Origin: an uncultured Bacilli bacterium | Lineage (GTDB): Bacteria; Bacillota_I; Bacilli_A; RF39; UBA660 | Reading direction: 5' to 3' | Length of the DNA: 51,741 nucleotides | Assembly: GCA_904420615.1 (NCBI GenBank) | Contig: CAJFVY010000018.1 | Location: 1-51,741 of the forward strand | Shown: positions 80 to 13,011 of the stretch, one piece after another | How the letters are laid out: every line of letters starts with the position of its first letter | Numbering within the stretch: position 1 is the first letter of the stretch | The notes under the pieces: generated by a model | Seen by the model: only the letters and a program-made list of their open reading frames with translations | Databases searched by the model: none | What the model was told of the DNA's origin: nothing | Program-made: the position numbers and the translations under genes

Positions 80-156
80 TGGGGCGGCGTATGAGGATCG
101 AACTCATGCATACTGGTGCCACAAACCAGCGTGTTAACCACTTCACCAACGCCGCC
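80..156 (-). tRNA. tRNA-His (anticodon GTG)
   Basis: The reverse complement folds as a cloverleaf. Acceptor GCGGCGT/ACGCCGC plus the His-specific extra 5' G(-1) opposite C73. Anticodon stem CTGGT/ACCAG with loop TTGTGGC. T arm ATGAG-TTCGATC-CTCAT. CCA end is encoded. Confidence 0.9.
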
Positions 157-3108: not shown

Positions 3109-4028
3109 TTAAATCCACGATCAAGTCCATCTTCTATTTCTTGTTTAAATACTTCTTTAAAATGAGGTATTTCTTTTTTGATAATATCAGGATAAACATT
3201 CTTGGTATTTAAAATAGCACGTTCTATATCAAAAATATTTACTTCCTGTCTATTATCATAGATAGCATAAGAAAATGCTTGTTGTAATAAAGTCAAAGTG
3301 ATATCAGGATAACGTGATCCTATTTCATAGATACGGCGATATTCACTAGTTAAATCAGTTAAAAATCCCATTATTTTTTCTTGTACATAGGGATCATACA
3401 ATAATTTAGCTCCTGTTTTCTTTTCAATCTTAGGAAGTGTTCCCATACAAATTGCAATTGTTTCTTCTCTTGTTGGTTCAGCTACTTCTACTTTTTGGAA
3501 TCGTCTTACAAATGCTTTATCTCGTAAAATATAGCGTTCATACTCTTCACTAGTAGTTGCTCCAATGACTTTAATATCCCCACGGTCAAGTCCTGGTTTA
3601 AAAATATTAGCAAAATCAAGTGCTTCCCCTTTCGCTCCCATTAAAGTATGAATTTCATCAATAAATAAAATTAAATTATTATATTCTTTTAATTCATCCA
3701 ATAATATTTGAATCTTACTTTCACCAGTATCTGGATCAACTCCTAATAAAGCAGAAGTATTAATTTTAATAATAGTATAATTTTTTAAGGCATTGGGTAC
3801 ATTTCCTATTTGAATTCGATAAGCTAACCCTTCTACAATAGCTGTTTTACCTACACCAGGTTTACCTACTAAAATAGCAGATTTTTCAGGAGTAAGTAAA
3901 ATTAATACTAATTGTTTAATTTCTTCTTCTCTACCAATAGCTGGATTAGTAATATATTCTTTTTCATTAAAGTTTTCACCATAACTTTTTAAAATACTAA
4001 CTTTAGATCTTCTAATTTCCTCTTTCAT
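3093..4028 (-). CDS. Stand-alone ClpA/ClpB-type AAA+ domain protein (D1-like only)
   Basis: 311 aa. Motifs: NPAIGREEEI, Walker A GKPGVGKTAIVEGLAYRI, Walker B LILFIDEIHTLMGA, IKVIGATTSEEYERY, and sensor/Arg finger FVRRFQKVEV. No N-domain, middle domain or second AAA module. Confidence 0.7.
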   Translation of the reverse strand: MKEEIRRSKVSILKSYGENFNEKEYITNPAIGREEEIKQLVLILLTPEKSAILVGKPGVGKTAIVEGLAYRIQIGNVPNALKNYTIIKINTSALLGVDPDTGESKIQILLDELKEYNNLILFIDEIHTLMGAKGEALDFANIFKPGLDRGDIKVIGATTSEEYERYILRDKAFVRRFQKVEVAEPTREETIAICMGTLPKIEKKTGAKLLYDPYVQEKIMGFLTDLTSEYRRIYEIGSRYPDITLTLLQQAFSYAIYDNRQEVNIFDIERAILNTKNVYPDIIKKEIPHFKEVFKQEIEDGLDRGFNSSME

Positions 4029-5294: not shown

Positions 5295-5672
5295 TTATTC
5301 TACTTCTTTTTCCCATAAACCATGCAAATTACAATAAGAATAAATCTTCATACCACTTTCATATGGTACTACAAGACTTGGTTCAAAAGAAAAAGTAAAA
5401 TGTTTTTCTATAACTTCATTTTCATAAACTACAAAAATATATTCAATATAATGTTTTTCTTCCATAACATGTGGTACGGTAATTTTAATGTTATCTCCTA
5501 ACTTTTCATAGACTGGTACGTGTTTTTCCACTGCTGCATCTGTAGAATTAGCTATTACAGATTGCATTTTTTCTCCACAACACATTAAATTACCATCATC
5601 ACAATTACATTCTTCTAATACTCTTACCAAAGTATTACATTTCATACATTTTTTTAAATTTAACTCTTTCAT
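5295..5672 (-). CDS. dfx: Desulfoferrodoxin / superoxide reductase
   Basis: N-terminal desulforedoxin-like Cys (CMKCNTLV...CCGE) and centre-II motifs EKHVPV and CNLHGLW. I place the start at M13 of the tracked ORF (ATG 5670-5672), preceded by AGAGGGA, which gives 125 aa. Confidence 0.8.
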   Translation of the reverse strand: MKELNLKKCMKCNTLVRVLEECNCDDGNLMCCGEKMQSVIANSTDAAVEKHVPVYEKLGDNIKITVPHVMEEKHYIEYIFVVYENEVIEKHFTFSFEPSLVVPYESGMKIYSYCNLHGLWEKEVE

Positions 5673-5734
5673 ATTATCCCTCTTTTCCTTTTTTATTTTA
5701 TCATACAATCTTTCATTCTGTCTAACTTTTCATT

Positions 5735-6289
5735 CTAAATTTTAACATATTTAAAGCATTCTTTTTGATGAGAATTAATTACACCAATAGCCTGTAAATA
5801 AGAATAGATAATAGTAGTACCGACAAACTTCATTCCTCGTTTTTTTAAATCATGTGAAATAGTATCTGATAGTTCTGATCTTGTTTTATCTATCTCATAG
5901 ACAATTTTATTTTTTGTAAAATGCCAAATATAATTAGAAAAAGCTCCATATTCTTGTTGTATATTTTTAAATATTTTAGAATTATTAATAGCTGCTTTAA
6001 TTTTTAATTTATTTCTAACTATATTTTTATTATTTAATAATTCTTCTATTTTTTTATCATCATATTGACAGATTAAATTAATATCAAAATGATCAAAAGC
6101 TTTCTCAAAAAAACTTCTCTTATTTAAAATACATTCCCAAGATAAACCAGCCTGAAAAGACTCTAGTATTAAAAGCTCTAATAATTTTTGATCATCATAA
6201 AGAGGCTCTCCCCATTCTTCATCATGATACTTTATATATAACTCATTCTTATCATTTACCCAATTACAACGTTTCATCTTGTTTTTCAT
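5735..6289 (-). CDS. tag: DNA-3-methyladenine glycosylase I
   Basis: 184 aa with the hallmark YHDEEWG motif, a QAGLSW segment and a C-terminal zinc-site-like H..C. Length is typical of Tag. Confidence 0.85.
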   Translation of the reverse strand: MKNKMKRCNWVNDKNELYIKYHDEEWGEPLYDDQKLLELLILESFQAGLSWECILNKRSFFEKAFDHFDINLICQYDDKKIEELLNNKNIVRNKLKIKAAINNSKIFKNIQQEYGAFSNYIWHFTKNKIVYEIDKTRSELSDTISHDLKKRGMKFVGTTIIYSYLQAIGVINSHQKECFKYVKI

Positions 6290-6290
6290 G

Positions 6291-6797
6291 TTATATTTTA
6301 ACTCCTTCTAACTCTAATAAATCCTTTTTGATCTTAATTCCACCAGCATAACCAGTAAGACTATTACTAGATCCTATTACGCGATGACAAGGAATAATAA
6401 TAGAAATCGGATTATGCGACACTGCCCCTCCAATAGCTTGAGCTGACATACTCTTCTTATGTAATCTCGAAGCTACTTCATGCGCTATTTCTCCATAAGT
6501 TCTAGTGTTACCATATGGAATATCACATAATATTTGCCATACTAGCTTTCTAAACTTACTACCATCAGGTTTTAATGATAATTCATCAATTTTAGGTTCT
6601 TCGCATTTAAAATACCGATCTAACCAATTTTTCGTTTGCATTAATATTGGAAGATCATCCTTTTCTATTAAGTTTTCTTTTAAACTTCCCAAATAATATT
6701 TTTGATTTTTTATCCATAACCCTATTAAATTGTTATTATCACTTACTAATAATAATTTACCAATTGGTGAATCATAATATGTTTTATATAATGACAT
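6291..6797 (-). CDS. ogt: Methylated-DNA-protein-cysteine methyltransferase
   Basis: 168 aa with the active-site motif IPCHRVI and a preceding TYGEIA helix-turn-helix segment. Confidence 0.85.
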   Translation of the reverse strand: MSLYKTYYDSPIGKLLLVSDNNNLIGLWIKNQKYYLGSLKENLIEKDDLPILMQTKNWLDRYFKCEEPKIDELSLKPDGSKFRKLVWQILCDIPYGNTRTYGEIAHEVASRLHKKSMSAQAIGGAVSHNPISIIIPCHRVIGSSNSLTGYAGGIKIKKDLLELEGVKI

Positions 6798-6846: not shown

Positions 6847-7527
6847 TCAAACTTTATATTTCCATACCCCTACTTTCCCTTTCAACTTTATTTGGTCCTT
6901 CACCAATTCGGCTTTTGAAAATATCCAAACATAATAACCTATCACAAGTGGATGATTTATATATTCTTTTGGGTAAGCTTGCATTTCTTTTATATTTTTT
7001 TCATCAATACGAATACAATCTAGTACTTTTACTTTACTATGTATATAACCATATTTTATCTTTTTTTTAAATATATTTTGATATTTCTGCAATTCTTTTT
7101 TGGATAACTTACTATTAGAGGCATGAATATAAATTTCTCCACAATAGGGTAATTTCATCTTTGTAATATAAATATTTATCTTATTCTCACTAATAAGACT
7201 AGCATATGGTTCTCTTACTGTCAGCATTTTTAAATACTGACTATTATTGTATAAAATACCTTTTTGTTTTAATTTTCTAATTCTATTATCAATAGAAGAA
7301 AAAGATCGATTTAACTTTTTAGCAAGTTCATCTTTTGTCATAACTAAATAATAATCTATTAATACTTGATCTTCTTCTTTTGTCCAAGACTTAGCTAATT
7401 TATCAGCATTTATTCTCCTAGCTCTATGATTAATAGAACTGACTGTACGATTTAAATGCTTAGCAATCTCTAATGAACCCTTTTCTTTATAATATCTTAA
7501 AATGTATGCATCTTCTTTTTTGTCCAT
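6847..7527 (-). CDS. SANT/Myb-like repeats plus C-terminal ASCH-like domain; probably the 3' part of the upstream gene
   Basis: 226 aa. Contains the repeat WTKEEDQVLIDYY and an ASCH-like segment (LTVREPYASLISENK...GEIYIHAS). Its first codons overlap the end of ORF 7497-9050 in the -1 frame. Confidence 0.6.
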   Translation of the reverse strand: MDKKEDAYILRYYKEKGSLEIAKHLNRTVSSINHRARRINADKLAKSWTKEEDQVLIDYYLVMTKDELAKKLNRSFSSIDNRIRKLKQKGILYNNSQYLKMLTVREPYASLISENKINIYITKMKLPYCGEIYIHASNSKLSKKELQKYQNIFKKKIKYGYIHSKVKVLDCIRIDEKNIKEMQAYPKEYINHPLVIGYYVWIFSKAELVKDQIKLKGKVGVWKYKV

Positions 7528-9050
7528 TTACCACTTCTATGTAATCCCAATCTATTAGCTCTACATATACAAGCTTCGCTTGTTCTATTTAACAAGGAAG
7601 CAACATATTTACTACCTTTATCAGGATAATATTTAGTTAATATGTTATCTTCTTCTTCCGTCCAACCAACTACATAATCAGGAATGATTCTGCTCTTATA
7701 ATCTTTTTTTACCTTTAACCAATTATTATAATATAATCTACTAACTTCTTTACTATCATAATTATAATATTCTTGATAAGAAAGTTCTAAATTATACCAT
7801 TCAAGAAATAAATTAGAATGATGAATAAACTCTAATACCTGTTTTTCAATATTTTCTTGTGTATATTTTATTCGTAACAAAGGTATCTGTTTCCTTTTAC
7901 AAAATTCATTCTTAATATGATCATGTCTTTGATTTGTTTTTAATATGACACTAGCAGGTATAACATGACTTCTATATACATTCGTTTCAAAAAAATGTTG
8001 TACTCCATCATATTCAATTAGTCCCATTAATTGATTCTCTTTATAAATTCCAAAATCAAATAATAATATATTTTTATCTTTACATTCTCTGAATCCCACT
8101 TCTTGTTTAAAGTCAATATGATTATCCAATAGAATTTGTTTAATTTTTTCTACTGGAGAACTATACTTTTGTTGATAAGCTATATTTAAATTAACTGCCT
8201 TTATCTTACATGATCTCATATTTCTTTTCGGAAGCAATTCAGAAACATATTTTCCAATTATGGGATAATATTTTTTTAAAATAGATATTTCTTCTTTCGT
8301 CCACTTTTTTGGATTATCATATTTTAAATGATGTTTACTGGCATAAATCTTACAACTATTTAATGTCTTATGTAGTTGTTTTGCTACCCAGGTTGGTCCT
8401 TTTTCAGCATAATGCTCATACAAAAATTTTATTTCTTCAAGAGTCCATCTTTCTTCTTTCCTGATTTTTAGAACTGCAGCTCTACTTTTACATGCTGTTT
8501 CAGATCTTTTTAAATACTTAGCTACATATTTCGTATCTTTACTAGGATAGTATTTTCTTAAAAAATTATCTTCTTCTTCACTCCAACGATCTTCAAAAAT
8601 ATATTTTATCCCTAATTCACTTGCTTTGGCCATACATACATTTCTATTCCGTCCTAATAATTTACTTACTTTTAAAGATCCATATTTAGGATAATATTGT
8701 TTTATAATATCCTCTTCTTCTTTTGTCCAATGATAATCTCTTTTAATATTAAGGCTCCCTGCCTTAGCTATACAAGATTCTTTTGACTTTCCTATTTTTT
8801 TAGAACACCACACTGCTCCTTTGGCACTATAGTTTTCCTTTAAAATTTTGATTTCTTCTTCTGTCCATTTCTTAGAATGATAACCTGATAATTTAGTTTT
8901 TTCCAAATTATTTAAATGATAAACCCTATTAACACAAGCCTTTTTAGTTCTTTTTAACAACTTAGCTATAGCAGAAGCTCCTAAACTATAGTATTGTTCT
9001 CTTAATAATTGATCTTCTTCAGTAATCCACTTTATATTTTTTCTCTGCAT
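7497..9050 (-). CDS. Seven SANT/Myb-like repeats flanking a Vsr/DUF559-like PD-(D/E)xK nuclease domain
   Basis: 517 aa. Seven ~47-aa units of W-T-x-E-E-(D/I)-x-x-L-x-x-x-Y-...-G-...-(A/S)-K-x-L-...-C-...-A. The central segment LLFDFGIY...GLIEYDGVQHF...RHDHIKNEFCKRKQIPLLRI is nuclease-like. Confidence 0.65.
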   Translation of the reverse strand: MQRKNIKWITEEDQLLREQYYSLGASAIAKLLKRTKKACVNRVYHLNNLEKTKLSGYHSKKWTEEEIKILKENYSAKGAVWCSKKIGKSKESCIAKAGSLNIKRDYHWTKEEEDIIKQYYPKYGSLKVSKLLGRNRNVCMAKASELGIKYIFEDRWSEEEDNFLRKYYPSKDTKYVAKYLKRSETACKSRAAVLKIRKEERWTLEEIKFLYEHYAEKGPTWVAKQLHKTLNSCKIYASKHHLKYDNPKKWTKEEISILKKYYPIIGKYVSELLPKRNMRSCKIKAVNLNIAYQQKYSSPVEKIKQILLDNHIDFKQEVGFRECKDKNILLFDFGIYKENQLMGLIEYDGVQHFFETNVYRSHVIPASVILKTNQRHDHIKNEFCKRKQIPLLRIKYTQENIEKQVLEFIHHSNLFLEWYNLELSYQEYYNYDSKEVSRLYYNNWLKVKKDYKSRIIPDYVVGWTEEEDNILTKYYPDKGSKYVASLLNRTSEACICRANRLGLHRSGKWTKKKMHTF

Positions 9051-10606: not shown

Positions 10607-10897
10607 TTATTTATTTAACACTTCACTATGACTACCAGTATTTACTAACAATAAAACTATTTCGTCTTCTAAGTATTTATATATAAGTATCCAGTCGGGT
10701 TCGATATGACAATCTCTACAATCTTTAAATTTTTTATCATTGTATAATTGATGATCTCTATATTTAGGATCTAATTGTTGTTTTCTTGAAAGCATATCTA
10801 CTACATTTAATAATTTGTCAATATTTTTGCCTTGTTTAGTTACTTTTTTTAATGATTTTTTAAATTCTTTTGAATATTTTATTTTATAATTAGTCAT
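10607..10897 (-). CDS. yafQ: Type II toxin, YafQ/RelE family mRNA interferase
   Basis: 96 aa. YSKEFKKSLKK...LDPKYRDHQL...CRDCHIEPDWILIYK...LVNTGSHSEV matches the YafQ pattern. Overlaps the antitoxin gene by 8 nt. Confidence 0.8.
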   Translation of the reverse strand: MTNYKIKYSKEFKKSLKKVTKQGKNIDKLLNVVDMLSRKQQLDPKYRDHQLYNDKKFKDCRDCHIEPDWILIYKYLEDEIVLLLVNTGSHSEVLNK

Positions 10898-11204
10898 CAG
10901 ATAATAACGCCTCTTTTAAATCTTCAATATTGTTATAACTTTTATATTCTTTAGGGTGTTTTTCGATATAAGCAAGTTCTCTTGCTGTTCTTTCAAGTTC
11001 TTCTTTAGTAAAATATTGATATAATTCAAGATCTTCTTTAGGTATAGATACATCAAAAGGGATTCTACCACGCATTATTAGTTGCTTAATAGTCATATTG
11101 ATTAATCCACTCATACTAACACCTAATTTTTGAAGTATTGCTGTTGCTTGTTCTTTATCTTCTTTATCAATTTGAACGCTTATAGAAGTTGTTAAATTAG
11201 ACAT
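10890..11204 (-). CDS. dinJ: Type II antitoxin, DinJ/RelB family, with extra C-terminal segment
   Basis: ISVQIDKEDKEQATAILQKLGVSMSGLINMTIKQL is a ribbon-helix-helix DinJ pattern. The start is taken at M19 of the tracked ORF, preceded by AAAGGAG. A promoter sits inside the tracked N-terminal extension. Confidence 0.75.
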   Translation of the reverse strand: MSNLTTSISVQIDKEDKEQATAILQKLGVSMSGLINMTIKQLIMRGRIPFDVSIPKEDLELYQYFTKEELERTARELAYIEKHPKEYKSYNNIEDLKEALLSDD

Positions 11205-11229
11205 AATATCATCTCCTTTTCTGTTAATA

Positions 11230-11258
11230 AATATATCAATTTTTATATAATTTGTCAA
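11230..11258 (-). promoter_or_regulatory. Sigma-A-type promoter of dinJ-yafQ
   Basis: Minus strand reads TTGACA (11253-11258), a 17-nt spacer, then TGaTATATT extended -10 (11230-11235). It lies about 25 nt upstream of the dinJ ATG. Confidence 0.55.
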
Positions 11259-12922: not shown

Positions 12923-13011
12923 TGGTGCACATGAAGGGACTTGAACCCATACGAAGATCACTCTTCTGCAGATTTTGAGTCTGCCGCGTCTACCAATTCC
13001 GCCACATGTGC
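12923..13011 (-). tRNA. tRNA-Leu (anticodon CAA)
   Basis: Reverse complement has acceptor GCACATG/CATGTGC and anticodon stem GCAGA/TCTGC with loop CTCAAAA. There is a long variable arm (GAAGA-GTGA-TCTTC), a T loop TTCAAGT and an encoded CCA. One T-T mismatch in the T stem. Confidence 0.85.

Follow-up and report, generated by a model that had tools for sequence, protein, structure and literature searches.

The disrupted gene and its two reading frames

Two overlapping reading frames, here called ORF1 and ORF2, lie on the minus strand of the window, by which we mean the whole 51,741-nt stretch of DNA that was analysed (Table 1). They overlap by 31 nt, and the mRNA at their junction reads ...AGA AGT GGT AAA TGG ACA AAA AAG AAG ATG CAT ACA TTT TAA. 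ORF1 starts behind a GGAG Shine-Dalgarno motif (upstream sequence TAGGAGAAATATCATG) and closes with five out-of-frame residues (KMHTF) and a TAA codon at 7497-7499, while the N-terminus of ORF2 is MDKKEDAYILRYY. A reading of the sequence alone had described this layout, comprising the frame of 517 amino acids, its overlap with the next frame, the junction mRNA with a T6 run on the plus strand, and a zero-frame A_AAA_AAG heptamer, and all of these elements were recovered. Translation across the junction likewise showed that a -1 shift at the heptamer gives ...GKWTKKEDAYILRYY..., rebuilds a W-T-x-E-E-D repeat and joins the frames into a fusion of 734 amino acids. The same length was found for the intact alleles of the gene (P0001, P0110-P0115, P0117 and P0119), and the gene on the closest of the related contigs, L005, is collinear with the window apart from a single 1-nt gap.

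Table 1. Features of the disrupted gene in window coordinates.
Feature	Position	Strand	Description
Disrupted gene, whole	6847..9050	(-)	With A7 restored, a 2,205-nt ORF of 734 aa
ORF1	7497..9050	(-)	517 aa; 5' part of the gene; end ...GKWTKKKMHTF*
ORF2	6847..7527	(-)	226 aa as listed; 3' part of the gene, -1 frame
A6 tract	7516..7521	(-)	T6 on the plus strand; site of the 1-nt deletion; A7 in intact alleles
A_AAA_AAG heptamer	7515..7521	(-)	Zero frame of ORF1; the G of the heptamer is at 7515
Central nuclease-like domain	7821..8162	(-)	Motifs FDFGIY ... LIEYDGVQH ... HDHIKN
C-terminal ASCH-fold domain	6850..7239	(-)	Absent from the zero-frame product; from fold search

Domain organisation of the encoded protein

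The fusion contains nine units of the W-[TSI]-x-E-E type, starting at residues 8, 62, 108, 156, 202, 250, 463, 509 and 556. The unit at residue 509 is that of the junction, and the -1 shift thereby rebuilds a ninth repeat beside the eight others that had been counted from the sequence. ORF1 carries seven of these Myb/SANT-like repeats and the central DUF2726-like domain, which is of the PD-(D/E)xK type. Both Pfam families matched by the repeats scored well above their curated cut-offs, namely PF00249 (Myb_DNA-binding; E = 5.5e-17, 62 bits against a cut-off of 24.4) and PF13921 (E = 2.7e-11, 43.9 bits against 22.9). The DUF2726 match to the region around LIEYDGVQH was weak (E = 0.0014) and fell under the curated Pfam cut-off. 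Many of the invariant columns of alignment A1 are located in this central domain. PHROG matches to the repeats and the central region bear the labels "transcriptional regulator, D5-like," "homing endonuclease" and "HNH endonuclease," and the latter two families cover the central domain.

The C-terminal part of the gene carries an ASCH (PUA-like) domain, as supported by its predicted fold. The AlphaFold2 model of ORF2 had a pLDDT of 83.3, and its best Foldseek matches in the PDB were to the TRIP4 ASCH domain (E = 8e-9, target-normalised TM 0.64-0.68), followed by matches to EOLA1 and the Zymomonas ASCH protein (ZmASCH). The Pfam ASCH family (PF04266) gave no match for the C-terminal ~130 amino acids, and neither did any other Pfam family even at E <= 10. 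The predicted ASCH fold is situated downstream of the junction, in agreement with the earlier proposal that the 517-aa zero-frame product is devoid of the ASCH domain. Searches with NCBIfam and PADLOC returned negligible matches only and thus did not point to any known defence system.

The repeat family is modular and consists of uncharacterised bacterial repeat-guided nucleic-acid enzymes. Many remote homologues (among P0013-P0106) have the same Myb/SANT-like repeats followed by helicase-family domains (Pfam DEAD, Helicase_C and ResIII), and in others the repeats are joined to HNH or Mrr-type nuclease domains, in either case in place of the DUF2726-like and ASCH domains.

Intact alleles and the distribution of the A6 tract

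A search with the reconstructed fusion retrieved the 734-aa protein P0001, with 97% identity at 100% query coverage. The 90% identity cluster of this protein has 14 members, namely nine distinct 734-aa proteins encoded by single ORFs in Logan, ENA and NCBI assemblies, three fragments, and the 517-aa and 226-aa pieces of the window. The junction is WTKK(E/D)DAYILRYY in each of the nine full-length proteins, and the three intact alleles that were read as DNA (L001, L004 and L005) all have an A7 run, in the context ACA AAA AAA GA(A/C). These single-ORF relatives bear out the earlier suggestion that the two frames of the window represent one gene broken at the A run. The closest comparison is with L005, for which an alignment of 12,235 nt shows 99.86% identity to the window, with 16 mismatches and one gap, the gap being the junction A; a separate comparison of the two agreed that this is the only indel inside the gene.

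The A6 tract was found in the window and in L002, L003 and L006, all of which are consensus contigs that might share samples or reads. The latter three match the window at 100% identity along 2,250, 2,060 and 876 nt, respectively. An identical 226-aa product is encoded on the ENA contigs L002 and L003, which a look-up placed in 3 and 2 samples, respectively, and a related fragment is encoded on L006. An exact look-up of the 517-aa product was empty, yet the cluster listing has this product on one contig. In a scan of JGI metagenomes for the junction, in which runs of A5-A9 were allowed, there were no matches. The A6 tract is thus confined to one haplotype, and the nearest A7 haplotype is 16 SNPs away in 12.2 kb. 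Its restriction to contigs that are 100% identical to the window points to one clone.

At the protein level, the fusion differs from the intact P0115 at 2 residues and from the intact P0113 at 3, all of them N-terminal in the case of P0113, with the 222 residues downstream of the junction being identical. No degenerative change has accumulated after the break, which suggests that the deletion is recent. Given the few substitutions, continued expression of the 3' part under selection would likewise account for its unmutated frame.

As a separate observation, L006 departs from the window sequence at window position 7070, inside the ASCH domain. Beyond this breakpoint (L006 877-1510), an ORF on the minus strand encodes a Listeria-Bacteroides repeat domain, indicating either a chimeric scaffold or a local rearrangement.

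Orthologues in other species

The alignment with 11 orthologues at 38-48% identity continues unbroken across the junction, where Trp509 is nearly invariant and Asp514 is invariant. The ASCH domain is absent from some of these proteins, and none of the 11 ends at the junction. A scan of genome contigs identified orthologues only outside the species of the window, at <= 47% identity, among which six loci from as many other species (L007-L012; gut MAGs, Clostridium sp. CAG:417 and Bariatricus massiliensis) were inspected as DNA. Each of them has a single open frame at the junction, with the codons TGG AAG AGG GAA GAA GAT, TGG AAT AAA AAA GAA GAT, TGG AAA AGA GAA GAA GAT, TGG AAA AAA GAA GAA GAC or TGG AGT GAA GTT GAA GAT. 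Neither a conserved two-frame layout nor a conserved slippery heptamer was found among the nine intact alleles and these six loci. The comparison of orthologues, which had been proposed as a check on the sequence-only reading, consequently went against programmed frameshifting: close relatives have A7, and distant ones are single ORFs without a conserved heptamer.

Other lesions in the same gene

The gene appears to be dispensable, under relaxed selection and subject to repeated decay, as indicated by the A6 allele together with different inactivating lesions that were found in other strains and in another species. L087 (1-993) and L088 represent one haplotype in two assemblies and have lost 1 nt at each of two other sites of the intact allele. 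At gene position 1572, G3 is shortened to G2, and at position 1984, A8 is shortened to A7, leaving the 3' part split into three small ORFs. In L089 (1-1325), a C2 to C1 deletion is present at gene position 1949. Of the gene, this contig retains no more than the final ~550 nt, preceded by 589 nt that are unrelated to the window and include an 89-aa ORF with no Pfam match. It represents either a truncated or rearranged locus or a chimeric contig. A nonsense mutation was observed in L013, from an uncultured Eubacteriales MAG (CASEMA010000002.1) of another species with a higher G+C content; here, at ~3205-3207, TGG has changed to TAG (GAVW to GAV*), at a Trp that is invariant in all other orthologues. 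Lesions at G3, at C2 and in the form of a nonsense codon are not sites of recoding or phase variation. Such repeated loss seems to fit a dispensable or selfish element.

Recoding and translation signals at the junction

The window has a G+C content of 30% and contains 69 copies of AAAAAAG. In the zero frame, A_AAA_AAG occurs 11 times when only the ORFs of at least 150 amino acids in the window are counted (15,009 codons), with one of these copies elsewhere in ORF1 and one in ORF2. The heptamer is no more frequent than chance would give. Moreover, removal of one A from ACA AAA AAA GAA necessarily yields ACA AAA AAG AAG and with it the zero-frame heptamer, which is a by-product of the deletion and not an independent or evolved signal.

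No stimulatory RNA structure was found around the junction; the 131-nt segment 7430-7560(-) folds at -14.5 kcal/mol (z = +0.38), and 127 of 200 shuffled sequences fold as well. Likewise, no clear Shine-Dalgarno-like stimulator was seen upstream of the heptamer.

ORF2 was also considered as a true second gene and rejected. Its ATG (7525-7527) is preceded by ATAGAAGTGGTAA, with no motif of the GGAG type found before ORF1 and before the neighbouring genes ogt and tag; it starts within a repeat unit, at a point where none of the orthologues begins. The ATG of ORF2 is an incidental internal ATG.

In E. coli, A_AAA_AAG is among the heptamers most prone to slippage and one of those above 0.1%, while heptamers without stimulators raise frameshifting 2- to 10-fold over a background of ~0.05% (PMC4066793). 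By analogy, the rescue of full-length protein by incidental -1 slippage would be expected to be small, at most sub-percent. Slippage during transcription was also considered, but the runs known to make it efficient are of ~9 nt or more, and the A6 tract is shorter than this.

Origin of the disruption

We consider it very likely that the two frames result from a real, recent and strain-specific deletion of one base in the A7 run of one clone, and that this is an ordinary frameshift mutation. The intact gene encodes one 734-aa protein, in which nine Myb/SANT-like repeats are combined with a nuclease-type domain resembling DUF2726 and, at the C-terminus, an ASCH domain. According to this scenario, one A would have been lost from the A7 run (ACA AAA AAA GAA to ACA AAA AAG AAG) in a single clonal lineage of a low-G+C gut Firmicute related to MAGs of the Clostridium sp. 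CAG:417 type, most likely through replication slippage. Thereafter, ribosomes that remain in the zero frame would stop five codons further on, and the resulting 517-aa protein would be without the ASCH domain and the last two repeats. ORF2 would represent the former 3' end of the gene, opened by a chance internal ATG, and the function of the protein may have been lost or reduced. The pattern is that of a frameshift pseudogene, with an intact close allele that differs by one indel and a downstream frame that has no Shine-Dalgarno motif of its own. A recent pseudogenising indel had been listed among the alternatives when the sequence was first read, and it has gained support from the A7 relatives, the one-gap comparison with L005, the single A6 haplotype and the independent lesions.

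We also considered the possibility that the deletion exists in the assembly only, so that the genome would truly have A7 and a plain 734-aa ORF from which the consensus has dropped one A. Indel errors typically arise in homopolymers, all of the closest relatives have A7 and the downstream frame is fully intact, as such an error would leave it. However, A6 is also present in three other deposited assemblies with different styles of contig naming (k141_..., ...METAG-scaffold_... and scaffold_...), suggestive of different assemblers, and a single indel relative to L005 in 12.2 kb shows that the assembly of the window is not generally prone to indels. Furthermore, for another strain A7 is called on a contig that has a k87-style name and a nearby ERZ accession. 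A run of 7 nt is short for a consensus error in Illumina data. We therefore regard a sequencing error, another of the alternatives raised at the outset, as unlikely. A reversible contingency switch between A6 and A7, turning the full-length protein with its ASCH domain on and off, would agree with the occurrence of both tract lengths within the species and with the shift of a second homopolymer of the gene, from A8 to A7, in another strain. Yet the A6 tract follows one haplotype rather than being scattered, which argues against frequent switching. The tract is also short (6-7 nt) in a window that has 53 A/T7 and 11 A/T8 runs in 51.7 kb, it is absent at the junction of the more distant orthologues, and the lesions at G3, at C2 and in the nonsense codon are of a kind that cannot be switched. 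In our opinion, phase variation is improbable.

Programmed -1 frameshifting of the dnaX or IS type, evolved to give a fixed ratio of the 517-aa and 734-aa products, was the explanation favoured in the sequence-only reading. The zero-frame heptamer, its rank among the most efficient motifs in E. coli (PMC4066793) and the restoration of the repeat in the -1 frame speak for such a mechanism. On the other hand, neither the layout nor the heptamer is conserved, given that the nine intact alleles and all orthologues are single ORFs, and the motif arises automatically from the deletion and occurs in frame 11 times in the long ORFs of the window. There is neither a downstream structure nor a clear upstream stimulator, and heptamers without such elements are weak in E. 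coli, at the 2- to 10-fold level mentioned above (PMC4066793). The A7 relatives, the lack of heptamer conservation and the lack of a stimulatory structure have led us to abandon this explanation as very improbable. A more modest variant is that ribosomes slip by -1 on the newly formed heptamer at a meaningful rate, so that some 734-aa protein is made along with the 517-aa product. We think that there is little chance of such a partial rescue; if true, it would show how a mutational indel gives rise to a programmed frameshift.

Comparison with known systems

An ordinary frameshift mutation, the explanation we prefer, places the gene with the frameshift pseudogenes and split genes that arise from indels in short homopolymers, with which it shares the loss of one A from A7, the overlapping ORFs, the intact orthologues and the independent lesions. 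There is no substantive difference from ordinary frameshift pseudogenes, and the deletion merely happens to create a slippery heptamer. The E. coli dnaX gene has an identical heptamer in the zero frame, but adds an upstream Shine-Dalgarno-like element and a downstream stem-loop. In dnaX, a conserved signal with its stimulators directs a shift that leads to early termination (gamma), whereas here the shift would extend the protein, and the heptamer is limited to a single clone and lacks stimulators. The transposases of IS1 and the IS3 family use -1 frameshifting on A_AAA_AAG to produce OrfA-OrfB fusions, and they likewise combine a DNA-binding part with a downstream domain across a short overlap. 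However, IS elements retain both the motif and the arrangement in two ORFs from copy to copy and among relatives, whereas the relatives of the gene studied here have one ORF.

A further parallel is the "savior" or adventitious compensation of frameshift mutations (PMC5009743) and the non-programmed suppression of such mutations (PMC10861913), in which the indel is situated in a slippery run, as it is here. Slippage, ribosomal or transcriptional, could in the same manner restore a little full-length product, although such compensation is hypothetical at this locus.

For annotation, the implication is that the two ORFs of this strain should be entered as a single disrupted gene (a pseudogene or frameshifted CDS) and not as a case of recoding. 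The finding has little import beyond annotation, but the case is a useful caution. Whenever an A7 run followed by G loses 1 nt in an AT-rich genome, a "dnaX-like" zero-frame heptamer remains, and the motif alone therefore carries no weight.

Gene neighbourhood

The neighbouring genes downstream, at window 5295-6797 (-), were identified from the Pfam labels on the syntenic L005 as ogt (methylated-DNA-protein-cysteine methyltransferase), tag (3-methyladenine glycosylase I) and a desulfoferrodoxin-like gene. The only RNA genes recognised in the window by Rfam or ARAGORN are tRNA-His(GTG) at 80-155 (-) and tRNA-Leu(CAA) at 12923-13011 (-). Upstream of the disrupted gene, past a 328-aa ORF without a Pfam match, lies a RelB/ParE toxin-antitoxin pair at window 10607-11258 (-), again according to the Pfam labels on L005.
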